NCBI GenBank assembly: GCA_964387845.1
Contig: CAYLXA010000001.1
Location: 345,038-409,037 of the forward strand
Direction: 5' to 3'
Length of the DNA stretch: 64,000 bases
DNA from: an uncultured bacterium
GTDB lineage: Bacteria > Omnitrophota > Omnitrophia > Omnitrophales > Abzuiibacteriaceae
Under the pieces are notes generated by a model. That model saw only the letters and a list, made by a program, of their open reading frames with translations, had not been told where the DNA came from and did no database searches. This document shows, one piece after another, positions 217 through 14,548 of this stretch. A program made the translations under genes and the position numbers. The stretch's first letter is position 1. The number at the start of each line of letters is the position of its first letter.

Positions 217-1890
217 CTACGAACGAACTTTATGATAGCGGCTTCTTAATAGCAAGAGAAAAGCAACATCTGCCGCTACCACGGCGGAAACATACCCCAC
301 ACCACCGCCGCCAAAACCATAACTATGAAGCCCGGCCGCTAAGACAAAATTCACGCCGTACCAGGCCATGATCACCGTCAAAAAGCAGACCGCGCACCAA
401 AACGCGGTCGCGAATGAATCCAGCCAGCCGGCAGTTCGCCCATGCATAACCGCCAAATACGCAAGTAACGCAATCAAAGCCCAGGTTTCCTTCGGATCCC
501 AGCCCCAAAACCGGCCCCATGAATAATTCGCCCAAACGCCGCCCAGGATTGTTCCGGCAGCGAGCAAAATAAGCCCAATTTGAAGCGAACGATAAAGAAA
601 AGTAATAAGCTCATCTAACGTTTTATTATTTTTTTTCTTAAAAGCATAGTGAAACACAACCACATGCGCGACACCCCAATTGAGCAAAAACGCACCATAG
701 CCGAGCGTAATCGTCAGCACATGAACTGTGAGCCAAAAATTGCTGCGCAAAACGGGAACCAAAGGCGAAATCGACTGGTCCAAAACCGCCGGTAAATTTT
801 CGCTGATCAAGAGCGCCAGAATGGATACGGACGCTGCGATCATCGGAATCAAATAGGACCTGTAAAAAGCAAAAAGAATGAGCGAGAAAAGCACAACACT
901 CCACGACACCCAAATGACTGACTCATACATGTTCGTCACGGGCGGACGCCCGGCGATTAAACAACGCAGCACAAAACCCAACGTATGAACCGCAAAAGCC
1001 GCGGTAAAAAATGAGAAAGCGATTTTATTGGCGCGTTTTTTATTTCTCAGTGTCAGCCAGATCAGAAGGCTGCCTAAATAAATTGCCCATGCCGTATGAA
1101 ACGGGCGAAATTTGAGATAGAAAAGCTCGTAATGAATCAACGTCCGGTCGATGATGATGTCGCGCGATTCCAGTAATTTTGTAAGCGCATTGGCGAAAAA
1201 TGAAGCAGATACGCCGGCCATTTCGATTTTTTCATCCCGCAAGCGGCCGAGGAGAAATGAAAGTGAGTTACTCGCTTCCTTCACATTCGCCGCGGGATAC
1301 ATGGTTTCCAAAATGGAAATACCGTGATCGCTCGCAAGCCCCTCAAGCGGAACCCACCCCGCCTGTGGATCATCGGGATGCGGAATAAAGCCCGGCATTT
1401 CTCCGCGCCCGATAGCCTGAAACAGACGCGCTCTGCTTCCGAGTTCAATCATTGCCTTTTCGTATTCGTTTAGTTTTTCTTTTCTGTCCTGCTTAGCCCT
1501 TACTTCACCTGTTCTTGCCGTAAAATTCAAATCGGCGAGAACAAGAGAAGGTGCGATTCTATTGTTTTCCAGATCCGCGGAGAAATCCTTTCGTAACTCG
1601 GGATTTGAAACAGGTAAAATAGCCTTCGCGCTCCAAATATCGGGGGCCGCAATCCATCGCCACACCAGTTCGGTTGGCTCCATTTTTTGAAAATGTGTTT
1701 TGCCGGTCATATAGAGGACGATTTCTTTCGCGAAACTCTCAAACGGCTTGACGCGGCCGCCCTGCTGAACCGGAATTCCACCCAAAACTTCGTGCGCATT
1801 ACCTTCGGATTGATTGGCAAAGGATTGGGGCGAGAAAAACATCGCCAAGAGAATGACTAAAGAAAGACTGACAATAAATTTACAATACAC
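217..1890 (-). CDS. ccsA: cytochrome c-type biogenesis protein CcsA/ResC (System II)
   Basis: Tryptophan-rich WWD motif WGWDPKETWALIALLAYLAVMHGR plus a polytopic C-terminal half. Signal-like KFIVSLSLVILLAMFFSPQSFA lies just after a GTG preceded by GGAAAGG. The ORF-track N-terminus (to 2001) is translation of an intergenic palindromic repeat, so I place the start near 1890. Confidence 0.8.
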   Translation of the reverse strand: MYCKFIVSLSLVILLAMFFSPQSFANQSEGNAHEVLGGIPVQQGGRVKPFESFAKEIVLYMTGKTHFQKMEPTELVWRWIAAPDIWSAKAILPVSNPELRKDFSADLENNRIAPSLVLADLNFTARTGEVRAKQDRKEKLNEYEKAMIELGSRARLFQAIGRGEMPGFIPHPDDPQAGWVPLEGLASDHGISILETMYPAANVKEASNSLSFLLGRLRDEKIEMAGVSASFFANALTKLLESRDIIIDRTLIHYELFYLKFRPFHTAWAIYLGSLLIWLTLRNKKRANKIAFSFFTAAFAVHTLGFVLRCLIAGRPPVTNMYESVIWVSWSVVLFSLILFAFYRSYLIPMIAASVSILALLISENLPAVLDQSISPLVPVLRSNFWLTVHVLTITLGYGAFLLNWGVAHVVVFHYAFKKKNNKTLDELITFLYRSLQIGLILLAAGTILGGVWANYSWGRFWGWDPKETWALIALLAYLAVMHGRTAGWLDSFATAFWCAVCFLTVIMAWYGVNFVLAAGLHSYGFGGGGVGYVSAVVAADVAFLLLLRSRYHKVRS

Positions 1891-1980
1891 CCCCTCACCC
1901 TTTCCCTCTCCCTGAGGGAGAGGGGAATTGTTTAACTCACTCCCTCTCCCGCTTGCGGGAGAGGGCTGGGGTGAGGGTTG
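1886..1980. repeat. compound palindromic repeat (ccctctccc...gggagaggg units inside an outer ccctcaccc/gggtgaggg stem)
   Basis: Two perfect inner palindromes, ccctctccctgagggagaggg and ccctctcccgcttgcgggagaggg, are enclosed by an outer inverted repeat. A related copy sits at 25715-25775. Confidence 0.7.
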
Positions 1981-2000
1981 ATTATTTAGAAATTGTCTCA

Positions 2001-3761
2001 TTAGATTTTCCTCATTTTGGGGTCACTGGTCTTAAGCGTCGAATATTGTTTTAAATAGAATAACAAAATAATTCCGACTATCATCACAATCGAACCCGCA
2101 TATTTAACCGGGATACCGGGGTCGCGCGCAACTGTAAAGACGGAAATATCCGGCTCGCCGGGCGTCACTTGATACGCAGATTGATACACTTTGAAACTAC
2201 GATGAACGAGCGGTTCATTCATCTGAATCAATTGATCGCGGCTGATTCCCTTCGCTACGTCTTTCAAAGTGACCTGGCTTTTGAAACTGGCGGGCCGGTT
2301 GGTGCCGGGATCCGTATCCATTAAAAAATCATTCAATTGAATCGTGAAGCCCAGCGGTTGCGTCTCAAGCCCATAAACAAAGTGCCAATCATGGCCGCCT
2401 AACTGAGTCCGTTCAACCTGGCCCTGCCGAAGCCATAAATTTTGAGATTCATTTCCGTCCGATAGTTCGATTTGAATGACGCGAGTTGCGCCTGTGCGCT
2501 CTGAAGCGAGAGGAATCGGAGAAAATGAACGTTCTACTTCGGCATGATGATAAAAAGCATCAACACTGAATTTAAAATCCATCCATCCGGTTTCAATTTG
2601 TTTGCCGATTTCGACAATGCCGTCCGTAAGCAAATCGCCCTTTTTAACTTGATAGCGCGGTAAACCGTCCGGATTATAAATGAACCGAAGTTCGTTCTTT
2701 GAAGCCGCTTGATCCGCTTGGCCGGCCATTTTCATCGCAATCCGCATTCCGGAAGCGCTTGGCGCCATGCCATGCACAGTCGGAAAATCGGGAAAATTCG
2801 CGAAAATGGTATGCTGTTCGTTCAATCCATCGCCTTCCAAGATCAATTCCACCGCGGGGTTCCGCCACTCCTTGGAACGGTCAATCAATTTGTTTTGATC
2901 TACAATCGCATCACGCAAAATACGGTTGAGCTTAGCGCGGATTTTAGTGCCTTGAAGCGTAAATGATTTTGGTTTGTCGGATTCCTTGATCGGAACCTGA
3001 ATGATTTTACCCGATTTGAGCATAAATTCTAAATGCGCAAATTCATCTCCCGATTTTTTCTTCGGTTTCTCGATGTCAATCGGTTGGCGCGCAAAATGAA
3101 TGACGGCGGCACCCATGGCTAGCTGATTTTTTTCGGGATTATCCAAGAAAAGCCAATCGTTGGTTTGCGCCATCGATCCGGATAGTGAAAATTGAATGGC
3201 GGGAGACCCTTTGGCGGATTCTTTGACAGATTCTCCCAAAACCGCTTTCGGGAAATCCTGCAAAACATGGATCTGAACGGAGCTTTTCGGCTTCAATTCC
3301 AATTTCCGGCGCCCGGACCACGGAAACACGCTTGGTTTATAATGCATGACAAAATGTTCTTTCAAATCGGGAGAGAAAATTTCAAGTATCGGATTCGCCA
3401 AAGTCATACGGCTTTCGGAATCGCCTTCCTGAATCGACACCTGCCCTTCAATCCCGAAACGCTGCGTGATCAAAGAACCAATGAGAATCAAGATGATTCC
3501 GAGATGGGTCAAAAGAAAACCGATGTGCTGCTTGCGCCACGGCCAACGGCTGATTGCGGATGCGGCTAAATTAATCGCCAGTAAAACCAAAACAATCGAA
3601 AACCAAGGAGTATAATAAATCAAGCGCTGGGCGGCTTCCGCACCGTGATACGACTCGATGAAGGTGCCGGCAGCCACAATAATCGCGACAGTTACAATAA
3701 GCAGAACCGCGCACCAAAGCGAAGCAAAAAATTTGAATAGGTCGGACAATAGATGATTCAT
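2001..3761 (-). CDS. ccsB: cytochrome c biogenesis protein ResB/CcsB (Ccs1, System II)
   Basis: N-terminal transmembrane helices (LWCAVLLIVTVAIIVAAG..., WFSIVLVLLAINLAASAISRWPW), a large periplasmic domain and a C-terminal transmembrane segment. It sits immediately upstream of ccsA, the classic resB-resC arrangement. Confidence 0.8.
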   Translation of the reverse strand: MNHLLSDLFKFFASLWCAVLLIVTVAIIVAAGTFIESYHGAEAAQRLIYYTPWFSIVLVLLAINLAASAISRWPWRKQHIGFLLTHLGIILILIGSLITQRFGIEGQVSIQEGDSESRMTLANPILEIFSPDLKEHFVMHYKPSVFPWSGRRKLELKPKSSVQIHVLQDFPKAVLGESVKESAKGSPAIQFSLSGSMAQTNDWLFLDNPEKNQLAMGAAVIHFARQPIDIEKPKKKSGDEFAHLEFMLKSGKIIQVPIKESDKPKSFTLQGTKIRAKLNRILRDAIVDQNKLIDRSKEWRNPAVELILEGDGLNEQHTIFANFPDFPTVHGMAPSASGMRIAMKMAGQADQAASKNELRFIYNPDGLPRYQVKKGDLLTDGIVEIGKQIETGWMDFKFSVDAFYHHAEVERSFSPIPLASERTGATRVIQIELSDGNESQNLWLRQGQVERTQLGGHDWHFVYGLETQPLGFTIQLNDFLMDTDPGTNRPASFKSQVTLKDVAKGISRDQLIQMNEPLVHRSFKVYQSAYQVTPGEPDISVFTVARDPGIPVKYAGSIVMIVGIILLFYLKQYSTLKTSDPKMRKI

Positions 3762-3861
3762 AACAGTTTAAGATAAGGGGTAATTATACATGATTGGCAT
3801 AGCACACGTCATTAGAAACCGAAATTAGTTTAAGCGGGAATTAATTAGACTGATTGAAGAA

Positions 3862-5949
3862 TCAGCCCCAAGCCAAGCTGATTTCGCAGGAAATTAAATG
3901 CGCAATGTAATCGCCAAATTCGGCGTTGGAATTGGCAAGATAGTAATAAAGTCCGTATTTTGGCTCAACAGTTACTTTTTCATTCACATTCCATTTCAAG
4001 CCCGCTTCCAAATCCAGTTTCCGATAATCAGATCCGATCGGCAAGCCTCTGGCAGTAAAATCATTAAAATTATCAGCACGGGCATATTGCACCGATTGAA
4101 TAAACGAAACATTTTCTTTCGGCATGTAGCTCGTACTCAATGTCCACGTATCCACATTCGCGTTAAAACCCGGCAGGTTACCGCTTAATGCGCCGGCGGC
4201 CGGAGTATTGGTGTTTGACATAAGCTTTGAATAGGAGCCCAGAATCATTACATTTTCAACGGGTTGCGATGTAAAATCAAAAATAAAATTATTTGAGGTT
4301 GTTTCCGTATCAACGCCTGCTAAATTTTCAATGTTCGTCCTGTAATTTGTATCGCGCCCGATAAACCGAAAAGACGGCTGAAGATATTTGGTTAATGTCA
4401 ATGCCAACCTCATCATGAATTCATTAATATAGGTGTGCTGGCTGTCAAAAAATGCAGATTTTGAAACTCCTGATGAAACAGTTTCGTAAATATCATCGTA
4501 ATCCGTCATTTTAAGAGTCCTTCGAAAATGCGAAGTAATCCGCACAAATGAAAACGGCGCTGCGTGCCCGCCTAAAGTCATCACGCCACGCTGGATGTTT
4601 GTAATCGTTTCGCGAATAAAAACTTCACTTGCACTCGCCCCCGACTGTCCGCCAACGCTATCCCGATTTTCAGACATCGGTAACCGGTCTTGTTCTAATT
4701 CCAATTCTGTATAAATAGCCGTCCGCGGAATCGCCGTAAATCTGGCCGTAATCCCTTGTCCCCACCTGAAACCGCTCATACGCGTATCGCTGACGTCAAA
4801 TCGGTTAATGCGATTATCGGGCGGATCTGTGGTCTCAACGTTATAAGTAGACTCTCCGCGGCGATTTAAAAATTCTGACTTAACCTTTGCGCCGATATTG
4901 AACCATTTTGTGACCAGGGCCATCATATTAGCAACCCAGGTGTTGGAATGAAAATGGTTGGTTGCGATATTGCCAAAACGGTTTTCAGCATTTGCAAATG
5001 AACGCGGATTACCATTTTCGTCAAACTCTCGGATATCTTCCCATTCTTTGTTATGGATTTGTGCATATCGATACCCAGCCGAAGTGTACACTTTGTCCTT
5101 TAAAAACCACTTCGCGATTCCAAATATTGAGCTGAAAGTGTGTGCTTCCGGCTTTTGCTGCTGCTTTCTAATTAATTTATTACCAGCCGTAGCATCAGAG
5201 TCAGCGCCAAAATATTTCTCGACGCGTGTGTTATCGGATTTCACAATTTCAAATTTTTGCTCGCTTTTAAGTTCATAACCTTTAACGGTATGGTCGACTT
5301 TCAAGCCAAACGTATCCGCCACTTCGCTCACATCCTGATAGGAAGGCGCTATTTTCCGCGTCACACCGCTCTGAACCACGTCTCCCCATGTTAATCTGGA
5401 TTTTGCACCATTTTTAAATTCGCGCTCATACCCAATCATTACTTTTGGAAAATCCGGTATATCCAGCTCCGCTTCAACGCCGAAATGGCCGATGTCCAGT
5501 TCTAAATCTTTAACCGCGTCGCCAACCCGGAGTGTGTAGTCGCCCCGCGTTAGATTAAACGGATGATAAACACCGCCCGTCCGGTCATAATATTTCCGGA
5601 ACTCTTGGTAATCAAATTTGATTTGTCCCACTTCTTTTTTCTTGATGATGACAACGCCTTCGTAATCATTGTCCGCGGGGATTGCCTTGCCTTCCATTTT
5701 TACCGTAATATCATTCGGAAGCCTGTAAAAAGAATAAAATTCCTCAACGCCTGCGGCGTAATTGTTGCTCTTCCAATGATGCGCTCTGAATTTATCGGCT
5801 TCCCCGTCCACAAAAATATAACGGACCGGAAGAGGTGTGATATCAAGATGATTTTCTGAATTATTTTCCGAAGCTGCGTATAGAGATTGAGTGACGGCCA
5901 AAGAGACATACGCTAAAACGAATATTAACTTCCAATATGAGCGTCTCAT
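3862..5949 (-). CDS. secreted putative outer-membrane beta-barrel (porin-like) protein
   Basis: Start refined to MRRSYWKLIFVLAYVSLAVTQSLYA (signal peptide) with RBS AGGAGG just upstream. About 696 aa. G/Y/N/T-rich with alternating hydrophobic pattern and no transmembrane helices. Co-operonic with multiheme cytochromes. Confidence 0.45.
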   Translation of the reverse strand: MRRSYWKLIFVLAYVSLAVTQSLYAASENNSENHLDITPLPVRYIFVDGEADKFRAHHWKSNNYAAGVEEFYSFYRLPNDITVKMEGKAIPADNDYEGVVIIKKKEVGQIKFDYQEFRKYYDRTGGVYHPFNLTRGDYTLRVGDAVKDLELDIGHFGVEAELDIPDFPKVMIGYEREFKNGAKSRLTWGDVVQSGVTRKIAPSYQDVSEVADTFGLKVDHTVKGYELKSEQKFEIVKSDNTRVEKYFGADSDATAGNKLIRKQQQKPEAHTFSSIFGIAKWFLKDKVYTSAGYRYAQIHNKEWEDIREFDENGNPRSFANAENRFGNIATNHFHSNTWVANMMALVTKWFNIGAKVKSEFLNRRGESTYNVETTDPPDNRINRFDVSDTRMSGFRWGQGITARFTAIPRTAIYTELELEQDRLPMSENRDSVGGQSGASASEVFIRETITNIQRGVMTLGGHAAPFSFVRITSHFRRTLKMTDYDDIYETVSSGVSKSAFFDSQHTYINEFMMRLALTLTKYLQPSFRFIGRDTNYRTNIENLAGVDTETTSNNFIFDFTSQPVENVMILGSYSKLMSNTNTPAAGALSGNLPGFNANVDTWTLSTSYMPKENVSFIQSVQYARADNFNDFTARGLPIGSDYRKLDLEAGLKWNVNEKVTVEPKYGLYYYLANSNAEFGDYIAHLISCEISLAWG

Positions 5950-5959
5950 GACGGCCTCC

Positions 5960-6742
5960 TTAATATCGAAGATGATCGTCAAAATTGGAACCATGAACCG
6001 CCGTGTGGCACTTCGCGCTGAAGCAAGTGCCTTGCGCAAGGCGCGTAGCATGATTAGAACTTCCGATGAACGGAAAATTATCTTGTGTATGACAACGTAA
6101 ACATAAATTACTGTCGCGGGCAATCAGCATTTTGTCAGTAATCGAGCCATGAACTTGATGACATGTCGTGCAGCCTTCGCGCAGCGCTTCATGCTCCCAC
6201 ACAAACGGGCCGCGTTGTTCTTTATGACATTTAAAGCATGCTTCGTTGACATCTTCCATGGTTGTGGATGACCATGGCCTGACTTCCGGTCCGTGCGGAC
6301 TATGGCAGTCCGAACAACTCATCTTTCCTTCGAGCACGGGATGGTGGTGCGGAAGATTAAATTCTACTTTTTTATCGGTATGACACGCAAAACAGACGGA
6401 CGGATCTTTTCTGGGATTAATGATTTTCTTATCTTGGCTGGATTCTTTTAACTTATCATCCATATCGACATGTAGACTTCCGGGGCCATGACAAAGCTCG
6501 CAGCCTTGTACCGCCATATCTTTTCCGGGAATGCTGATACGGGAATGGGTCGAAAGTTCAAACTCTTTGACTTCTTTTTCATGGCAAGCGGCGCAAGTAT
6601 CCATACCGACATACTCCGCGCCTTCTATGTTATGAACTTCGAGAACTTTTTGGAGGGCTTCTTCGTCGTATTTGCAAGAAGTGACACTGAGAACGAGGGA
6701 TAATACCGCAAAACTAACAAAAATGCTGGCTTTTTGATTCAT
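5960..6742 (-). CDS. multiheme c-type cytochrome lipoprotein (7 CXXCH + 1 CX4CH)
   Basis: Lipobox LSVTSC. Heme motifs CAACH, CELCH, CFACH, CSDCH, CFKCH, CTTCH, CLRCH and the atypical CFSAKCH. 260 aa. Confidence 0.85.
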   Translation of the reverse strand: MNQKASIFVSFAVLSLVLSVTSCKYDEEALQKVLEVHNIEGAEYVGMDTCAACHEKEVKEFELSTHSRISIPGKDMAVQGCELCHGPGSLHVDMDDKLKESSQDKKIINPRKDPSVCFACHTDKKVEFNLPHHHPVLEGKMSCSDCHSPHGPEVRPWSSTTMEDVNEACFKCHKEQRGPFVWEHEALREGCTTCHQVHGSITDKMLIARDSNLCLRCHTQDNFPFIGSSNHATRLAQGTCFSAKCHTAVHGSNFDDHLRY

Positions 6743-6875
6743 GCTAGCGGTTTATGATTTGTGTTTGCGTACGAATTATATTGTTTTATTAAGAAATGAC
6801 AATCGCTTTTATGGCAGTGAAATTATCGACATTTCCTGAAAAACTTTATGTGACATCTGTCACTTAAATTGACGT

Positions 6876-8366
6876 TTATGCAGGGCCGCCGGTATGGCAA
6901 TCCATGCACGATATTTCTTTCCATGATTCTTGATCGCCGTCGGGATGCTTAAATTCCAGCCCATCTACCGAACTTTCCATAGCGCCAAATGGACCTTGAG
7001 CAATAATCCCGTGGCAAATTTTGCAATCATTTGAAATGATTTTACCCTGCGGGCTTTCATGCTTGCCGTCATGGCAACGGAAACAACCTGGCGCCATCAT
7101 GTGCCCGATATTGTCCGGATACGCTTTCCAAGACACATTCATACCCGGGAAAAAGTTGGATTGATAAATTTCAACAATGGCTTGAATAGAACGGTCTAAC
7201 TTGTTTTTCTGATTCTGGAAAACTTCCGGATAATTATCCTCGTAAAATTTTTCCAACCGCGACCGAATCTGAGCAGCCGCATCATCATGAGACTCGTATT
7301 TGCCGACCAAAACCTTGACGGCTTCGCGTTTCATATAAGGGAGCTCGGCGGCAATATCGCCTTTTCCCATTGCTTTATTGACAGACCTGGAAGGCGCTTC
7401 ATATTGATGGCTGGGCCGATTGTGGCAATCGATGCAGTCCATTTTTCGGATTTCGCCTTGCGGCGGTTTGCTAGCAGAAAATTTTGACTCACTGTCTACA
7501 AAATATTCTTCGCGGCCATCCTCATAAACCACTTTGACCCATGGAATTATTTGACGTTTTTCGTCAGTTGAAACATAGTAAACTTTGTTCGCAGGGTTCA
7601 CATGCCAATGGCTTCCATGCGCCTTTTCCCCGCCGCCCACATACATCAGCATGCGGGTGTTCCAAAGTGTGTTACTTTCGTCTGACATGAAATATTGATG
7701 ATCCTTCTCAATGGCTCCAAAAAACTTCTCGGGCCAATGACAATGTTCGCATGTTTCTTGAGCGGGCCGTAAATTCTTGACCGGCGCCGGAATGGGTTTG
7801 GAATATTTCTTGAAAATAGATGAATAAATTTGATGGGCGCCGTTAATTTTAGACTTCAAATAATAATCAGGCCCTGGGCCGACATGGCATTCAACGCAGG
7901 AAACGCGGGCATGCGGCGATTTGTGATACGCGGTAAATTCCGGATGCATGACTTGATGGCAGGTTTTTCCGCAAAATGTCACGGATTCCGAAAATTGATA
8001 AGCCTTGTAAGTTCCAAACATAGAAAAAATCAAGAAAACCGTGAAAAACCCAATGCCGATTAACGCCCAGCGTTGATGGGCCGGATTATTAAAATCAATC
8101 TGCGGAAACTTGCGGACATAACCTCTTTTCCGGCGCGCCGAACGTTCCCGCCAAGCGCCAAAAAAAATTAAAAAAAGAGTGAGTATAAGGAAGGCCGGAA
8201 GCCCGACATAAGTGATGGATTGCGTGTAGGGATTAATTTCTTTTGAAAGGAATTCGAGGACAATTAAAACTAAGATAGCAGAGAAAATGACAATGGAAAG
8301 AATTGCGCCGATAATGCTGAGCCAATTTTGAAAAAGGCTTTTGTTTGAATTTGGCAATTCAGACAT
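6876..8366 (-). CDS. membrane-anchored multiheme c-type cytochrome (3 N-terminal transmembrane helices; 6 CXXCH + 1 CX3CH), ImcH-like architecture
   Basis: Three hydrophobic helices in the first ~120 aa. Then CGKTCH (CX3CH), CVECH, CEHCH, CIDCH, CFRCH, CKICH, CMDCH. 3 TM plus ~7 hemes matches my memory of inner-membrane quinol-oxidising cytochromes such as Geobacter ImcH. Confidence 0.75.
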   Translation of the reverse strand: MSELPNSNKSLFQNWLSIIGAILSIVIFSAILVLIVLEFLSKEINPYTQSITYVGLPAFLILTLFLIFFGAWRERSARRKRGYVRKFPQIDFNNPAHQRWALIGIGFFTVFLIFSMFGTYKAYQFSESVTFCGKTCHQVMHPEFTAYHKSPHARVSCVECHVGPGPDYYLKSKINGAHQIYSSIFKKYSKPIPAPVKNLRPAQETCEHCHWPEKFFGAIEKDHQYFMSDESNTLWNTRMLMYVGGGEKAHGSHWHVNPANKVYYVSTDEKRQIIPWVKVVYEDGREEYFVDSESKFSASKPPQGEIRKMDCIDCHNRPSHQYEAPSRSVNKAMGKGDIAAELPYMKREAVKVLVGKYESHDDAAAQIRSRLEKFYEDNYPEVFQNQKNKLDRSIQAIVEIYQSNFFPGMNVSWKAYPDNIGHMMAPGCFRCHDGKHESPQGKIISNDCKICHGIIAQGPFGAMESSVDGLEFKHPDGDQESWKEISCMDCHTGGPA

Positions 8367-8403
8367 TTTTTACTTTTTTCCCGTATCGATACAGTGCCGA
8401 CTG

Positions 8404-8967
8404 TTACGATTTCGGTTTTGGATGTGCAATCTTTGCTTGGCGCTCTTTGTAATCAAACGGCTTGTAGGTCGGGCTTTCCTGATTATGGCACTTCACGCAC
8501 GTACTTTCATCCGGTAACAACAAACCATTTTCAATCGATGCCTGGCGGTCTTCCATAACACTTTTCTTCATATAATCCTTACCGGGCCCGTGACAGCTTT
8601 CGCAGGAAACACCTTCCTCTACCGGAATCGCATCAGAAACTTTTGTTTCGCCAAACCAATAAGCCGTTGAGTGGCATTTTAAACACTTGCCGCTGGTTTG
8701 AGGATCGCTAATACCTAATTTGGCAGCCGCTTCTTTCGCGGCGGGTGTGCCGAGTGTTTCAAATGCTTTAGCATGCATGGATTCCTGCCAAATCCGGAAT
8801 TGCTCACCTTCTTCCGGTTTTTTGTGGCACAGGGAACATTTTTTGGCTCCGATAAATTCATGTGCAGGCGCTGCTGCAAAAACAGGTTGATGGCTGAGAA
8901 AAAATACGGAAATAACAGCTAGGAAATATTTGAGAAAAATACCGGAATGAAACGAGTGCTTTGACAT
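8404..8967 (-). CDS. tetraheme c-type cytochrome (secreted)
   Basis: Start refined to MSKHSFHSGIFLKYFLAVISVFFLSHQPVFAAAPA (signal peptide), with AGGAG 11 nt upstream. Motifs CSLCH, CLKCH, CESCH, CVKCH. Confidence 0.8.
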   Translation of the reverse strand: MSKHSFHSGIFLKYFLAVISVFFLSHQPVFAAAPAHEFIGAKKCSLCHKKPEEGEQFRIWQESMHAKAFETLGTPAAKEAAAKLGISDPQTSGKCLKCHSTAYWFGETKVSDAIPVEEGVSCESCHGPGKDYMKKSVMEDRQASIENGLLLPDESTCVKCHNQESPTYKPFDYKERQAKIAHPKPKS

Positions 8968-9294
8968 ATTTTGGTGGCTCCTGTTTAGCTTCCTACTTTG
9001 CACTCTTATATACGAAATGCCCGCTCGTGCATGTGACATTCATCACTGCCCCAGCGTAACTTTAAAACAAAAATCACACTCTAATTAGAACGCTGGGACT
9101 GGACTCATTTCCTCTAGACTCACGCTTTTCTCAATGAAAATGAGTCCTGCACGAATTTTATCAATAAATGAAGATAGAAAGCAATTGCCAATAATTCTCA
9201 CAAATTATCGTAATTTGCCGTCAATTTATGAAGAAAATAATTGACCCATATCAGCGAAGTGCTAGAGTAAACAAAAAGTTGAGGAGGTGCTCAC

Positions 9295-10111: not shown

Positions 10112-10152
10112 ATAAAACCCCGTTCTCTTAATTGAGGACGGGGTTTTATTTT
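10112..10152. terminator. bidirectional Rho-independent terminator between the csp gene and the convergent Memo-AMMECR1 gene
   Basis: aaaaccccgttctcttaattgaggacggggttttatttttc. About a 10-bp GC-rich stem with T-tract on the + strand and A-tract on the other side. Confidence 0.7.
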
Positions 10153-11693
10153 TCTTCAAACGAAAAAACTGTAAAGGCAGAGAGCTTAACGGAAGGGCTT
10201 TTCCAGGTATCGGCCGGCAACCCCGCTTTTTCGGAACAAAGCAGGTTCATAAATTCTTCTTTATTTCCGTTCACATGTTCCCACACCTGCGGTAAAAAAA
10301 GACCTTTATTTCCATCTTTCTCGACAATCACGCCGCTTTGATTTGGAATGATGTCTTCGTGGCTCTTGATTTCTCGGATCGGCGAAAGTACGGAAATTTC
10401 GAACTTCACTTTCGAAAGCTCGCTCAAAGAAAGCTTCGCAAACCGGGGGTCCTGCGTTGCGGCAGCAATCGCGTAATCACGGACAGCTTGCAAAAGCGGT
10501 TTATCGGCATCCACGGTTCCGATGCAGCCGCGGAGTTCCCCGTTTTCCATCAATGTCACAAACACGGCGGACGGGACGGCAAGTTCGCCTTTTAAGGTTT
10601 TTGCGTCGATTTTTGTTTTCTCGCCGGATTTTAAATATTGCTCAACCGCCGAACGTGCTTCGGCTAAAAGTTTCTTTTGGCTCTCCGGAGAAACCGCAAA
10701 TGCTTCCTCCGTTTTCAAACTGTGAAACGTTTGCGGCGAATCTTTTGTAAACATAACAGCGCCATATCCGACTGTTTTGAGCGGCGTTCCGTATGGGCTG
10801 TCGGCGGAAGTGGCGTGATTCAAAACCGTTCCGCGCTTTGCGCCTAACTTGCGTGCCGCAGCCATCACAGCAATCGTGGCGCCTTCGCCGCACAGTGTGA
10901 CGTGAAGCTCCGGAATTTTCTTCGCCAAAATTTCTTCCGTTTTCTGCAAAAGCGCCTGCGCGTTCATGTCTTCGATGGTTTTTAGGATCAAAAGATCGGA
11001 TTCATTGGCGTTTTTTGCGTGCGGATAATGCGCCATGTCGGTCGAGCCGATTAAAATCGTACGGATGCCTTCCGATTCATTTTCTTTGATAACATCAGCA
11101 ATCACTTCTCCGATCCGTTCGGCCGTCGCCAAATCCGGATTGCCCATCACGATCGGGACAATTTTGAAATTTTGAAGGGTTTGCTGCAGAAACGGGATTT
11201 GTGTTTCGAGTGAATGTTCACCGCCATGCGCTTCCGGGTTGGCCTCCAAATCTTTTGAGCAGCTCAGAAGCTTCTGTGCCGTTTTTTCATCGACCGGAAC
11301 ATCGCCAAGCGGGCTTCTGAACGCGCCCTTCGGATACACCGCGCCGCCTTCAAGCGGATAAGAATGCGCAAGCCCGAGCAAAATAACGGTATCAATTTTT
11401 CGGCCTTCGATTTGTTTATACACATGCGCCGCAACGGGGCCGGAAAACACGAAACCGGCATGCGGTGCGAGAAACGCGACAGATTTACCTTGCGTGTCAA
11501 CTTTTCGGGCAGCATCCAGAAGAACCTTGATCATTCTCTGAAGCTCTTCCGGCTCAGCGGGATAAAACTGATCGGCAACGGCGGGTTCTCGGATCATGTT
11601 GGCATTTTCCATGGCGTAAGCACTCGGGGAAATAAAACTCAAACAAACTGCTAAAATAAAAAAGCAAACACTTTCATTTCGAAAGTGCTTCAT
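10146..11693 (-). CDS. fused Memo1-like (N-terminal) / AMMECR1 (C-terminal) protein with N-terminal signal-like segment
   Basis: N-terminal half: ADQFYPAEPEELQ...FLAPHAGFVFSGPVAAHVY (MEMO1 family). C-terminal half: LAVPSAVFVTLMENGELRGCIGT...QDPRF (AMMECR1). Likely start MKHFRNESVCFFILAVCLSFISPSAYA; the longer ORF-track start overlaps the upstream gene. Confidence 0.8.
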   Translation of the reverse strand: MKHFRNESVCFFILAVCLSFISPSAYAMENANMIREPAVADQFYPAEPEELQRMIKVLLDAARKVDTQGKSVAFLAPHAGFVFSGPVAAHVYKQIEGRKIDTVILLGLAHSYPLEGGAVYPKGAFRSPLGDVPVDEKTAQKLLSCSKDLEANPEAHGGEHSLETQIPFLQQTLQNFKIVPIVMGNPDLATAERIGEVIADVIKENESEGIRTILIGSTDMAHYPHAKNANESDLLILKTIEDMNAQALLQKTEEILAKKIPELHVTLCGEGATIAVMAAARKLGAKRGTVLNHATSADSPYGTPLKTVGYGAVMFTKDSPQTFHSLKTEEAFAVSPESQKKLLAEARSAVEQYLKSGEKTKIDAKTLKGELAVPSAVFVTLMENGELRGCIGTVDADKPLLQAVRDYAIAAATQDPRFAKLSLSELSKVKFEISVLSPIREIKSHEDIIPNQSGVIVEKDGNKGLFLPQVWEHVNGNKEEFMNLLCSEKAGLPADTWKSPSVKLSAFTVFSFEEK

Positions 11694-12222
11694 TCTTCTT
11701 ATCAGACGCTTTGCCCGGCTCTTCCGATTGCATCCAATGCTTAATCGTATCCGGCATCGGCGGCGATTCCTGCCAACTGCCGAGAAGCGCCAGGACTTGA
11801 GGTGTCGGCACATTCCCTTTCGGGCTTCTGAAAAGGCCCTTTACATACCCAACGGCCATGCATTTTCCGTCGTGAATGAATGACTGCTTGATGAAAATCC
11901 ATTTGTGGTCCCAGCAGATTACGCGGCTCACAAGCTGATAGCGCTGAAATAATTTTAAGGAACGCTTGTAACGAACGTTGACGGATGCCACAAGCGGCGC
12001 CAGATGATTTTTCCGGCAGATTTCGCCGAAACCCATGCGAAGAATAATATCGTAACGGCCCAAATCCATCACCGTCAAATAGCGGCCGTTGTTCATGTGG
12101 AAATAAATATCGAGATCGTTTGGGAAAACCCAAAGCGTTAAAACAGACGGATCGGATACTTTGAGAGGCTTTCTGAAAAATGAGGCGATTTTAACAAGCA
12201 GAATCCGGAAGAGTAGATTCAT
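11674..12222 (-). CDS. hotdog-fold acyl-CoA thioesterase-like protein
   Basis: 182 aa, with VFPNDLDIYFHMNNGRYLTVMDLGR...ASVNVRYKRSL, pattern-matching the 4HBT/thioesterase superfamily. Moderate only. Confidence 0.5.
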   Translation of the reverse strand: MNLLFRILLVKIASFFRKPLKVSDPSVLTLWVFPNDLDIYFHMNNGRYLTVMDLGRYDIILRMGFGEICRKNHLAPLVASVNVRYKRSLKLFQRYQLVSRVICWDHKWIFIKQSFIHDGKCMAVGYVKGLFRSPKGNVPTPQVLALLGSWQESPPMPDTIKHWMQSEEPGKASDKKNEALSK

Positions 12223-12232
12223 TGCACGGGCA

Positions 12233-14494
12233 TTACTTCCCCTTCATTAAATTCAGCGCGCTGCCGGCCTTAAACCAGGCGACCTGCTCCTGTGTAAAAG
12301 AATGCACGAGCGGCGCGTTTTCGGTTTCGCCGTTTGCGTGCATAATCACAAGCTCCAGCAAACTTTTGGGCGCCAAAATATCAACGCCTTCGATGCTGAT
12401 GCGGTCATCCGCTTTGATTTTGTCATAATCAGACGGGTTTTTGAACTTAAGCGGCAGGAGGCCCTGCTTTTTTAAATTCGTTTCATGAATCCGCGCAAAA
12501 CTTTTTGCAATCACGGCTGCGCAGCCCAAATACCGCGGGCTCATCGCGGCATGTTCGCGGCTTGAGCCTTCACCATAATTTTCATCGCCGACCACAACCC
12601 AACGGAGGTTATTCTTTTTATAATCGCGCGCCACTTCCGCCGGTGTCATTTTAGTACCCTTTTGAAGCTGATTCAGGGCTGTGCCTTGCGCACCGGAAAA
12701 ATCATTGTTGGCTCCGAGAAACATGTTGTCTGAAATTTTATCCAGATGGCCTCGATATTTGAGCCATGGCCCGGCTGGCGAAATATGGTCCGTCGTACAT
12801 TTCCCCTTCGCTTTGAGCAGCACCGGAAGATTTTCGAAATCGCTTTCCTTCCAGGGCTTAAACGGCTCCAATTTCTGGAGGCGCTCGCTTTGCGCATCGA
12901 TTGAAACTTGCACAAAAATTCTCTCTTTTTCGGAGAGCGGCGCCAGAAATCCCGCTTCGCCTGCGGCAAATCCGCTGGAAGGAAGTTCCGGTGCTTCGGG
13001 CGGCGTCAAAAGTATTTCCTTTCCGCCGGTTTTGATTTTGTCTTTAAGCGGATTGAAATCGAGGCGGCCTGCCAGTGCATAGGCCGTCACGATTTCGGGC
13101 GAGGCGATAAAAGCCAGAGTTTCGGGATTACTATCGTTTCTCGCAGGAAAATTACGGTTAAAGGATGTAATGATCGAATTTTTCTCGCCTTTTTTGATAT
13201 CGTCACGTTTCCACTGGCCAATGCAGGGGCCGCAGGCATTTGCAAGAACCGTTCCGCCGATTTCTTCTAAGGCCTGAAGCTGGCCGTCTCGCTTAATGGT
13301 GTTTTGAATTTGGTCGGATCCCGGCGTGATTAAAAAGTAGCACTGGGCTTTAATGCCGGCTTCACGGGCCTGTTCGGCCACCTGCGCAGCGCGGCCGATA
13401 TCTTCATAAGAAGAATTGGTACAACTGCCGATGAGCGCAGCTTTGATCATCGCCGGATAACCTTTTTCTTTCACGTCCTTCGCCATCTCGGAAACCGGGC
13501 GTGCCAAATCCGGCGTATGTGGGCCCACAACATGCGGCTCTAGCGCGGACAAATCAATTTCAATCACTTCGTCATAATAAAGTTCCGGGTTTTTATCGAT
13601 TTCAGGATCTGCAGTCAGAAATTTTTTGTGCTGCTCGGCGATATCCGCAATTTCTTTGCGTTTTGTGCTGCGCAAATAAGTTACCATTCGCGAATCAAAC
13701 GGAAAAACAGAAGTCGTTGCGCCCAGCTCTGCGCCCATATTGGCGATTGTGCCTTTTCCGGTACAGCTGATAGACTGCGCGCCGGATCCAAAGTATTCGA
13801 CGATCTTATCCGTTCCGCCTTTCGTTGTTAAAATCCCACAAAGTTTCAAAATCACGTCCTTGGCAGAAGCCCAGCCGTTCAATTTTCCCTTTAAATGAAC
13901 GCCTATCAACTTCGGGCATTTGACTTCCCAGCTGAGGCCCGACATCACATCGGCTGCATCCGCGCCGCCGACACCGATCGCCAGCATGCCAAGGCCGCCT
14001 GCATTCGGCGTGTGGGAATCCGTCCCGATCATCAACCCGCCGGGAAACGCATAGTTTTCGAGCACAACTTGATGAATAATCCCCGCGCCGGGTTTCCAAA
14101 ATCCGATCCCGTAACGCTGCGCTGCGGTTTTCAGGAATTCGTAGACTTCCTTATTGGTTTGGACTGCATTGAGCGTGTCTTCTGCGGCACCGATCCGGGC
14201 TTGGATCAAATGATCACAATGAATGGTTGTAGGAACCGCGACGGAATTGCGCTGAGCCAGCATGAATTGCAGGATTGCCATTTGCGCTGTCGCATCCTGC
14301 ATTGCCACGCGGTCCGGCCTGAGTGAAAGATAGCTTTCGCCGCGCACGAAATCCTGGGATTTGAGATCTGTCACGTGCGTTGCCAGGATTTTTTCGGTAA
14401 GCGTGAGCGGCCGGGCTAATTTTTTTCTGAGAAAATCAACTTTACCTTCGGCAGTTGCCAAAAGGCTCTTAATCATAAAAAGCGCATCGCTCAT
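12233..14494 (-). CDS. acnA: aconitate hydratase (aconitase A)
   Basis: 753 aa. Fe-S ligand region IGSCTNSSYEDI, ANACGPCIGQW, SFNRNFPARNDSNPET and the swivel domain. Full-length aconitase-family match. Confidence 0.95.
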   Translation of the reverse strand: MSDALFMIKSLLATAEGKVDFLRKKLARPLTLTEKILATHVTDLKSQDFVRGESYLSLRPDRVAMQDATAQMAILQFMLAQRNSVAVPTTIHCDHLIQARIGAAEDTLNAVQTNKEVYEFLKTAAQRYGIGFWKPGAGIIHQVVLENYAFPGGLMIGTDSHTPNAGGLGMLAIGVGGADAADVMSGLSWEVKCPKLIGVHLKGKLNGWASAKDVILKLCGILTTKGGTDKIVEYFGSGAQSISCTGKGTIANMGAELGATTSVFPFDSRMVTYLRSTKRKEIADIAEQHKKFLTADPEIDKNPELYYDEVIEIDLSALEPHVVGPHTPDLARPVSEMAKDVKEKGYPAMIKAALIGSCTNSSYEDIGRAAQVAEQAREAGIKAQCYFLITPGSDQIQNTIKRDGQLQALEEIGGTVLANACGPCIGQWKRDDIKKGEKNSIITSFNRNFPARNDSNPETLAFIASPEIVTAYALAGRLDFNPLKDKIKTGGKEILLTPPEAPELPSSGFAAGEAGFLAPLSEKERIFVQVSIDAQSERLQKLEPFKPWKESDFENLPVLLKAKGKCTTDHISPAGPWLKYRGHLDKISDNMFLGANNDFSGAQGTALNQLQKGTKMTPAEVARDYKKNNLRWVVVGDENYGEGSSREHAAMSPRYLGCAAVIAKSFARIHETNLKKQGLLPLKFKNPSDYDKIKADDRISIEGVDILAPKSLLELVIMHANGETENAPLVHSFTQEQVAWFKAGSALNLMKGK

Positions 14495-14512: not shown

Positions 14513-14548
14513 AGAAAACCGCAGAGAGGAATATCTCTGCGGTTTCTA
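14513..14548 (-). terminator. Rho-independent terminator for gene 14567..14914
   Basis: Perfect 11-12 bp stem aaaccgcagaga/tctctgcggttt. On the minus strand it is followed by a U-rich tract (uuuucuauuucu). Confidence 0.6.

Follow-up and report, generated by a model that had tools for sequence, protein, structure and literature searches.

Our analysis of a 64,000-nucleotide stretch of DNA (hereafter the window) identified a gene on its minus strand, at 10146..11693, that couples a Memo domain to an AMMECR1 domain. Its product is probably a two-domain enzyme that the Sec pathway exports to the periplasm of an Omnitrophota-like diderm (a probability of roughly 0.7). After removal of the leader, the mature protein would have a mass of about 54 kDa, with an N-terminal Memo domain featuring a complete MEMO1-type His/His/Asp/His/Cys metal site, and a C-terminal AMMECR1 domain that carries the conserved cysteine of an LRGCIG motif; a floppy linker, about 18 residues long, connects the two. 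The host was assigned as Omnitrophota-like, and is taken to be diderm because a sister contig carries a gene for a lipid A acyltransferase. Conservation of both Memo and AMMECR1 extends from bacteria to humans, and each has a link to human disease: MEMO1 through its ties to cancer cell migration and metal homeostasis, AMMECR1 through the AMME contiguous-gene syndrome. To our knowledge, neither has an established biochemical function, and we know of no bacterial member with a known biochemical activity.

The first 27 residues of the predicted product (MKHFRNESVCFFILAVCLSFISPSAYA; 11613..11693, minus strand) display the anatomy of a Sec-type signal peptide: a positively charged n-region (MKHFRNES), an h-region of 13 residues (VCFFILAVCLSFI; 7-15 being the expected range), and a c-region (SPSAYA) whose −3 and −1 residues are small, placing the predicted signal peptidase I (SPase I) cut at AYA↓ME. 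In the AlphaFold model of the fusion, this segment forms a helix over residues 3-19, followed by a low-confidence or disordered stretch at 24-30. Together with equivalent leaders in the relatives L081, L083, L084, L085 and L086, these features strongly support the view that residues 1-27 are shaped like a cleavable signal peptide.

Comparison with the relatives showed how persistently such a leader is retained. In L081, a sister contig with a 74% identical protein, an in-frame MKHFSQNALSEKICFLLLAVCFTVFCCHKIVFA lies ahead of the called start, and differs from the leader in the window by a 6-codon (18-nt) indel that preserves the frame. Among the four further relatives with leaders, two carry them on unrecognized GTG/TTG starts. 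Across every close relative, the upstream in-frame segment is open, hydrophobic and AxA-terminated despite low sequence identity. Further, a hydrophobic leader precedes the conserved R-x-P-x-V-A-G-x-F-Y-P start of the domain in 54 of 71 distant genome loci (76%), against 34% of 463 control ORFs with any such hydrophobic segment in their first 60 aa. The leaders were found even in relatives where the gene callers had chosen an internal Met.

As the in-frame leaders are conserved in relatives, the predicted translation start at the ATG at 11693-11691 (MKHF) is strongly supported, and the first-pass annotation, which had favored this start and its signal peptide as the best-supported reading, stands on this point. 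The purine-rich stretch upstream of this ATG can be set beside the C-rich sequence before the internal ATG for Met28 (11610..11612, minus strand), where nothing resembling a ribosome-binding site was found; Shine-Dalgarno sites are lacking in the window before both Met28 and Met33, a comparison of candidate starts that is uninformative because the host genome uses such sites rarely or weakly. The first ATG of the longest ORF, at 11813, was rejected as a start: it lies 120 nt inside the neighboring thioesterase gene and would add an Arg-rich peptide that is not conserved.

It is unlikely that SPase I leaves the leader uncleaved, such that it acts as a lipoprotein signal or signal anchor and tethers the enzyme facing the periplasm. 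Such tethering would fit the LAVC (Cys17) conserved between the window and L081, the canonical lipoboxes in many homologue leaders (e.g., FPAGC, ISVGC and LSLAC), and the conserved single transmembrane anchor of the partner radical SAM enzymes of Omnitrophota, which would suit a membrane-associated substrate. However, the sole lipobox candidate in the window's protein, L-A-V-C17, has a Val at −1, which breaks the [LVI][ASTVI][GAS]C rule, and 13 residues make a short h-region for a transmembrane helix; a Pro/Ser-containing c-region ending in A-Y-A follows it.

We consider it quite unlikely that both starts are used, with the long form being exported and a short form from Met28 or Met33 being retained in the cytoplasm, free to encounter a radical SAM partner there. 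A cytoplasmic isoform is conceivable because the first residue after the predicted cut is a Met in the five closest relatives (AYA↓ME, VFA↓MK, TFA↓MK, SYS↓MN and ADA↓MR) and because L086 has a strong AAGGAGG 5 nt upstream of its internal ATG; in addition, M-[VTI]-R-x-P persists at the ancestral start of many distant homologues that bear leaders. Yet the retained Met may be a relic of leader gain by upstream extension, and the window offers no Shine-Dalgarno site at either internal Met. Moreover, the radical SAM partner in the relatives has an export leader of its own, so the system can be explained without a cytoplasmic pool.

An entirely cytoplasmic protein, starting at Met28 (ATG 11612) with the upstream hydrophobic stretch left untranslated, is very unlikely. 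This is the NCBI call: the public entry P0001, 100% identical to the product of the window's gene, has 488 aa and begins at Met28, directly after the predicted cleavage site. The calls for P0003 and P0008 likewise begin at an internal Met, and these choices for the window's gene and two relatives count against the export view. A start at Met28 would also remove the overlap with the thioesterase gene, and leaderless homologues starting MVREPAVAGQFYP do exist. Against this stand the open, hydrophobic, AxA-terminated upstream segments of all close relatives with their frame-preserving indel, the leaders in 76% of the distant homologues, many with clear lipoboxes, and the presence of a purine-rich stretch before the MKHF ATG and not before Met28. 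If the protein is exported as we propose, public annotations start this gene and several of its relatives at least 27 codons late, hiding a secretion signal, and a corrected start would assign the protein to another compartment. The export signal that the public call overlooks suggests a system working outside the cytoplasm.

Both domains are readily recognized in a single ORF. The Memo domain, a member of the LigB/PCAD superfamily, spans residues 36-312 (10758..11588, minus strand; Pfam PF01875, E 3.4e-60), and the NCBIfam model TIGR04336 (Memo-like protein B) matches residues 35-315 with 250.3 bits (cut-off 26). Its metal-site residues H78, H110, D219, H222 and C268 are invariant in an alignment of 27 sequences (A1) and align with H49, H81, D189, H192 and C244 of human MEMO1 (7KQ8), to which the domain is also structurally similar (Foldseek TM 0.82, probability 1.00). 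The AMMECR1 domain spans residues 345-510 (10164..10661, minus strand; Pfam PF01871, E 9.9e-48) and scores 173.6 bits (cut-off 99) with TIGR04335 (AMMECR1-like protein A; residues 341-511). The LRGCIG motif (L387-G392, with Cys390) is invariant or nearly so in A1 and aligns with that of the archaeal PH0010 (1VAJ), again with a Foldseek TM of 0.82. The HMM check put forward in the first-pass annotation, with TIGR04335 and TIGR04336, thus places both models above cut-off on one 515-aa ORF. Between the domains lies a flexible linker, residues 318-335 (DSPQTFHSLKTEEAFAVS; 10689..10742, minus strand): pLDDT falls below 50 at residues 321-330, and the whole model has a pTM of just 0.60 against a mean pLDDT of 91, with both domains above 90.

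MEMO1 is a cytosolic, stand-alone protein of eukaryotic signaling and metal homeostasis, with neither a signal peptide nor a fused AMMECR1 domain. The human protein (PDB 3BCZ; 7KQ8, iron-bound; 7L5C, copper-bound) shares its fold and five metal-site positions with the window's protein at only about 21% identity. The archaeal AMMECR1 homologues PH0010, MM0484 (1ZQ7) and ST0229 (1WSC) share the fold (TM 0.6-0.82) and the LRGCIG cysteine motif and, unlike the fusion, are cytoplasmic single-domain proteins. The class III LigB-type extradiol dioxygenases (LigAB, 1BOU; aminophenol dioxygenase, 3VSG; DesB, 3WR8) have the superfamily fold (Foldseek E 1e-7 to 1e-10) at 11-16% identity, whereas the Memo-type ligand set includes a cysteine; nothing in this comparison pointed to ring-cleavage activity in the window's protein.

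The fusion itself proved to be widespread. The Memo-AMMECR1 architecture is present in 120 of the 120 best database matches and, in a profile scan, in about 78 of the 80 genome loci, which are spread over more than 15 phyla; hence, the rarity implied by the first-pass annotation was not borne out, while its description of the two domains as a single polypeptide holds. Such proteins, which IMG names 'AmmeMemoRadiSam system protein B/protein A', occur in Omnitrophota, Elusimicrobiota, Bacteroidota, Acidobacteriota and others, with examples including P0008 (GCA_040757695.1), L002 (Omnitrophota RA.bin19) and L038 (Acidobacteriaceae). They share the Memo-linker-AMMECR1 layout and the invariant residues with the window's protein at 37-48% full-length identity, and usually have an N-terminal Sec or lipoprotein leader, as predicted for the window. 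A scan of genome contigs with the single fusion protein returned no close relative, and the nearest species representative in the profile scan is only 43% identical. On its predicted export and its architecture, the window's fusion is an ordinary member of a widespread, uncharacterized clade. An apparent triple fusion in L061 (an 856-aa ORF) was rejected because the fusion gene of that locus starts with a separate leader in a different frame; in this high-GC genome, the long ORF is an extension through an overlapping frame. That the fusion is an artefact of two genes joined by frameshift or misassembly has next to no probability: we found nothing in its favor, the minus-strand ORF is continuous over 10146..11813 (515 aa plus stop when read from 11693) with no internal stop or frame change within the fusion, both domains are confidently modeled, and contiguous fusion ORFs recur on independent contigs of four other metagenomes and in hundreds of genomes (sources JGI, ENA, Logan and NCBI).

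The canonical AmmeMemoRadiSam system comprises three genes (TIGR04335, TIGR04336 and TIGR04337), of which the window has the A and B components, in contrast to the canonical arrangement, as one polypeptide with a predicted signal peptide and with no TIGR04337 gene in its 64 kb. The absence of an adjacent radical SAM partner, already remarked upon in the first-pass annotation, extends to the whole window: the CX3CX2C motif is absent from all of its ORFs of at least 100 aa, and six-frame tblastn with 44 partner TIGR04337 proteins yielded nothing real below E 0.03. Nor was a radical SAM gene found within 10 kb of the fusion in L081-L087. Among 31 relatives with full flanks, a TIGR04337 gene lies within 8-10 kb of the fusion in 20, mostly immediately upstream, and is absent in 11, among them the closed Zixibacteria chromosome CP070766, so being unlinked does not set this locus apart; lack of a linked partner is a common minority state. 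By the same measure, about two thirds of the fused proteins have a TIGR04337 gene within 10 kb, whereas the window and its four closest relatives do not. In the window's lineage, the radical SAM gene may lie elsewhere in the genome or may have been dispensed with, as in eukaryotes.

Where radical SAM ORFs adjoin the fusion, all 43 of 43 match TIGR04337. These pyruvate formate-lyase-activase-like enzymes, neighbors of the fusion in about two thirds of relatives, have either a twin-arginine (Tat) leader or an N-terminal membrane anchor; a CxxCH haem motif is present in five of them. The Tat assignment rests on the motif and a hydrophobic stretch because, among the radical SAM leaders tested individually, a single one scored above the cut-off of the Tat model TIGR01409, and the model was not among the top families in a batch scan. 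A homologue search with the L002 enzyme as query returned, among the best 120 matches, solely other Omnitrophota at 61% identity or more, none of them on the 409,037-bp source contig. Leaders on the fusion and on the radical SAM enzyme co-vary (both, 30; fusion only, 7; radical SAM only, 0; neither, 5; Fisher p = 9e-4, uncorrected for phylogeny), and therefore the whole system appears extracytoplasmic in many phyla.

Upstream of the fusion gene lies a gene for a hotdog thioesterase (Pfam 4HBT_2; 11674..12222, minus strand), the neighbor named in the first-pass annotation; the last 20 nt at its 3' end overlap the start of the fusion gene. The thioesterase gene is preceded by an aconitase gene (12233..14494, minus strand; an ORF named from the Pfam matches of syntenic loci), the first gene of an apparent aconitase-thioesterase-fusion operon. 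A terminator-like hairpin upstream of the aconitase (14515..14546) marks the upstream boundary, and a hairpin with a 16-bp stem and T-runs (10112..10149), between a convergent csp gene and the fusion gene, is probably a bidirectional terminator closing the operon. That the fusion is the last gene of this terminator-bounded operon is strongly supported. An 11-bp hairpin immediately after the fusion ATG spans the thioesterase stop codon (11666..11690, minus strand) and could, speculatively, be a translational-coupling element. The aconitase is 90-91% identical in the sister contigs, and a thioesterase homologue adjoins the fusion only in L081, L082 and L084 (tblastn). We considered the thioesterase as a substitute partner and rejected it, as only the closest relatives have it next to the fusion; there is strong support for reading both neighbors as lineage synteny only and not as partners. 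L085 has an unrelated 4HBT gene beside its fusion, and L086 and L087 also have an aconitase near theirs, of a different type (34-36% identity) and in convergent orientation.

We tentatively extend the argument beyond the window, at somewhat less than even odds: in most bacteria with the fused form, the whole AmmeMemoRadiSam system may act outside the cytoplasm, with the fusion exported by Sec, often as a lipoprotein, and the radical SAM partner exported folded by Tat or held in the membrane via an N-terminal helix, in some lineages bearing a c-type haem motif through which electrons might enter. A point against export is that we know of no obvious source of SAM or low-potential electrons for radical SAM chemistry outside the cytoplasm. 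In the full texts that we searched, neither exported Memo/AMMECR1 proteins nor radical SAM enzymes with Tat leaders are described, though Burroughs et al. 2019 (J Biol Chem) may mention them. Archaeal AMMECR1 has been linked to NFACT and PIN-domain genes, with a predicted role in RNA modification (PMC4075521, PMC6393860); the published prediction of RNA-base modification (PMC4075521) does not fit a periplasmic location and so counts against export. Under the exported arrangement that we favor, the system would target a cell-envelope or periplasmic substrate rather than RNA, with the Memo domain possibly performing metal-dependent redox chemistry and the AMMECR1 cysteine possibly binding or transferring a substrate or intermediate.

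If true, this would imply a periplasmic radical SAM enzyme and would weigh against the idea that this branch of the AMMECR1 family modifies RNA, in favor of an envelope, lipid or quinone-type substrate, with the window's lineage showing that an exported Memo-AMMECR1 pair can persist with the radical SAM gene unlinked or lost. A large bacterial clade with predicted export signals on both domains, and usually on the partner too, would narrow the range of possible substrates, and offers tractable bacterial systems for tests of function, such as the Bacteroidota or Acidobacteriota loci with Tat-leader partners.

The minus strand of the window carries a single ORF without interruption from 11813 to 10146 which, when begun at the ATG at 11693 (gene 10146–11693), codes for a protein of 515 aa. 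Pfam places a Memo domain at residues 36–312 (E 3.4e-60) and an AMMECR1 domain at 345–510 (E 9.9e-48), and both NCBIfam models of the AmmeMemoRadiSam system score above their cut-offs: TIGR04336 (Memo-like, protein B) with 250 bits against 26, and TIGR04335 (AMMECR1-like, protein A) with 174 against 99. Thus, the single-polypeptide fusion proposed in the first-pass annotation is upheld. An AlphaFold2 model from a 27-sequence alignment has a mean pLDDT of 91.3 but a pTM of 0.60, indicating two well-folded domains with an undefined mutual orientation; these are joined by a low-confidence linker (residues 318–335), and the N-terminus is modeled as a helix (3–19) followed by disorder (24–30). Foldseek matched the N-domain to MEMO1 (TM 0.82) and, more remotely, to LigB-type extradiol dioxygenases, and the C-domain to PH0010, an AMMECR1 homologue from archaea (TM 0.82), with no solved chain spanning both. 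H78, H110, D219, H222 and C268 are invariant across the 27 aligned homologues and correspond by alignment to H49, H81, D189, H192 and C244 of human MEMO1, the metal-site residues in the iron-bound (7KQ8) and copper-bound (7L5C) structures. The LRGCIG motif of AMMECR1 (Cys390) is likewise invariant, and both domains look catalytically intact.

The fusion architecture is itself not unusual, and its rarity had been overrated at first pass. All of the best 120 matches among 5.8 billion proteins possess both Pfam domains and measure 456–631 aa, with IMG naming some of them 'AmmeMemoRadiSam system protein B/AmmeMemoRadiSam system protein A'. A profile scan of species-representative genomes recovered at least 598 confirmed relatives, and about 78 of the best 80 of these loci cover both domains; they come from Omnitrophota, Elusimicrobiota, Bacteroidota, Acidobacteriota, Desulfobacterota, Zixibacteria, Latescibacterota, WOR-3, KSB1, Chloroflexota and other phyla. 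Four other metagenomes contain the same continuous ORF on independent contigs, which rules out an assembly artefact as its origin. One related locus even codes for two tandem fusions (L026:2611–4317 and L026:4119–5837), each with a separate hydrophobic leader.

Residues 1–27 (MKHFRNESVCFFILAVCLSFISPSAYA) display the classic n/h/c layout of a signal peptide, with A-Y-A at positions −3 to −1; a lipobox was rejected, as the context of the sole cysteine (LAVC) violates the lipobox rule. The public call for exactly this gene (P0001) is 488 aa long and starts at Met28. Such late starts at an internal Met were assigned by the NCBI, JGI and ENA callers, with loss of the signal peptide in the fusion and several orthologues; the segments concerned are 11610–11693 in the window, 9902–10000 in L081, about 1030–1092 in L085 and 9929–10000 in L086. 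In L081, a sister contig with a 74% identical fusion protein and synteny over more than 20 kb, the called start is an internal Met, and the open frame upstream reads MKHFSQNALSEKICFLLLAVCFTVFCCHKIVFA followed by MKNNLIREP. This leader shares the MKHF start, the hydrophobic core and an AxA-like end, and a 6-codon indel between the two keeps the frame. Among the other close relatives, the gene calls of L083 and L084 include the leader, while L085 (MARKIKVVLLCLFLLGLADA) and L086 (MKRIYLCFLLAVFISVGC) have perfect leaders on unrecognized TTG/GTG starts. Of 71 classifiable distant loci, 54 (76%) have an upstream start and a hydrophobic leader that precedes the conserved R-x-P-x-V-A-G-x-F-Y-P start of the domain, nine of these 54 having lipobox-like sites; as a control, any such segment occurs in the first 60 residues of only 34% of 463 other long ORFs from the same loci. 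Shine–Dalgarno sites do not discriminate between the starts since they are rarely used in the source genome. The comparison with the leaders of relatives favors the longer form over the P0001 start, in line with the signal-peptide-like N-terminus remarked on at first pass, and we conclude that MKHF is the correct start of a predicted exported protein. A lipid A acyltransferase gene on the sister contig points to a diderm host, in which exported would mean periplasmic.

A Met stands straight after the predicted signal-peptidase site in the five closest relatives (region 11597–11612 in the window, with equivalents in L081, L083, L084 and L085). It may be the relic of an ancestral start, the leader having been gained by upstream extension, as leaderless homologues start with MVREP. 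In a rival reading, translation may also begin here and yield a cytoplasmic isoform besides the exported form; in L086, AAGGAGG lies 5 nt ahead of the internal ATG.

As first reported, no radical SAM gene adjoins the fusion: in the 64-kb window no ORF of at least 100 aa has a CX3CX2C motif, and neither a gene nor a remnant was found when 44 bona fide radical SAM partners were searched against all six frames by tblastn. Of the 80 related loci, 44 have a radical SAM ORF within 10 kb that bears the motif AFSIATAGCNLxCxFCQNWxIS; the fusion position was also mapped in 42 of these, and in 25 of the 42 the ORF is directly upstream on the same strand. All 43 such ORFs scanned matched TIGR04337. Where at least 8 kb was available on both sides (n = 31), 20 loci have the ORF and 11 do not; the fusion in the window has flanks of 10 kb and 52 kb. 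None of its closest relatives (L081–L087, 44–74% identity) has one within 10 kb. By these counts, the fused clade normally constitutes a two-gene system (radical SAM plus B/A), and the window lineage is within a sizeable minority with the partner unlinked or absent.

The TIGR04337 partners in the related loci L002–L079 (among them L013:14789–15919, L038:8716–9966, L053:8758–9891 and L076:8878–9978) have 45–87 additional N-terminal residues beyond the family model. In 22–23 loci, spread over eight or more phyla, these form twin-arginine (Tat) leaders (e.g., SRRDFLK, TRREFIKK, DRRSFLQ), with KR variants such as NKREFLK in Bacteroidota, and in nine loci, mostly of Omnitrophota, they form a hydrophobic leader. 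In Omnitrophota the extension is one conserved transmembrane helix, which recurs in over 100 proteins called independently (P0121–P0240); it spans about 20 residues with KK and RRE flanks, and the positive-inside rule leaves its orientation ambiguous. Leaders occur on both fusion and radical SAM enzyme in 30 loci, on the fusion only in seven (two of them misclassified leaders), on the radical SAM enzyme only in none and on neither in five (Fisher p = 9e-4, kinship ignored). The partner leaders and this covariation imply a radical SAM enzyme that would be exported or membrane-held in these relatives. Tat is the expected export route for a pre-folded Fe-S protein, which makes this picture coherent. 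In five loci (L018:4657–5901, L020:8615–9892, L021:8506–9744, L074:8709–9989 and L078:8721–9965), a CxxCH haem-c motif separates the Tat leader from the radical SAM core and may give the enzyme an in-built site of electron entry in the periplasm. It is tempting to speculate that such an exported enzyme uses SAM as a regenerated cofactor and receives electrons via haem.

In the window, terminator-like hairpins (14515–14546 and 10112–10149) flank an aconitase (12233–14494, same strand), a 4HBT_2 hotdog thioesterase (11674–12222) directly upstream of the fusion, and the fusion itself; with intergenic distances of 10 nt and −20 nt, the three form one operon. Homologues of the thioesterase and aconitase adjoin the fusion in its nearest relatives only; the relevance initially given to the thioesterase was thus overrated, and both genes are treated here as synteny rather than partners. 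An aconitase of another type (34–36% identity) adjoins the fusion convergently in two Elusimicrobiota loci (L086:11661–13562 and L087:11620–13536); this too is probably synteny, though the recurrence is odd. An 11-bp hairpin (11666–11690, minus strand), which begins one base past the start codon of the fusion and takes in the stop codon of the thioesterase gene, might couple the translation of the two genes. Between the window and L081 and L084, divergence is faster for the fusion protein (71–74% identity) than for its neighbors (aconitase 90–91%, thioesterase 81–89%, Tgt 86–87%). The best named matches of Tgt are from Candidatus Omnitrophota (67–68% identity). The remaining neighborhood comprises housekeeping genes and a cytochrome c cluster (217–9039, minus strand) shared by L081 and L082, with CcsA-like and ResB biogenesis genes, a 7–8-haem lipoprotein, a NapC/NirT-type 6–7-haem protein and a 4-haem c554-like protein. 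Its 753-aa ORF (3862–6123), beta-rich and with a signal peptide but no Pfam match or haem motif, looks like an outer-membrane barrel, and the cluster resembles a porin–cytochrome electron conduit in an Omnitrophota-like genome.

By sequence, the fusion qualifies as both protein A and protein B of AmmeMemoRadiSam, but it departs from the description of the system as 'three separate proteins' and from its adjacency criterion. Burroughs et al. in 2019 reportedly connected the contexts in which Memo occurs with modification of nucleotide bases and isoprenoids. A full-text literature search, with that work outside its scope, turned up neither exported Memo/AMMECR1 proteins nor radical SAM enzymes with Tat leaders. 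A role in RNA base modification, exerted through the conserved cysteine, has been predicted for AMMECR1 (PMC4075521), which also ranks among the top-priority uncharacterized archaeal proteins (PMC6393860). The gene is a genuine and intact Memo–AMMECR1 fusion with a predicted exported product, an ordinary member of a widespread, functionally uncharacterized clade. The locus itself is of modest interest; the most interesting result lies outside the window, in the leaders of the partner enzymes, and the apparent export signals on all components, clade-wide, merit follow-up.
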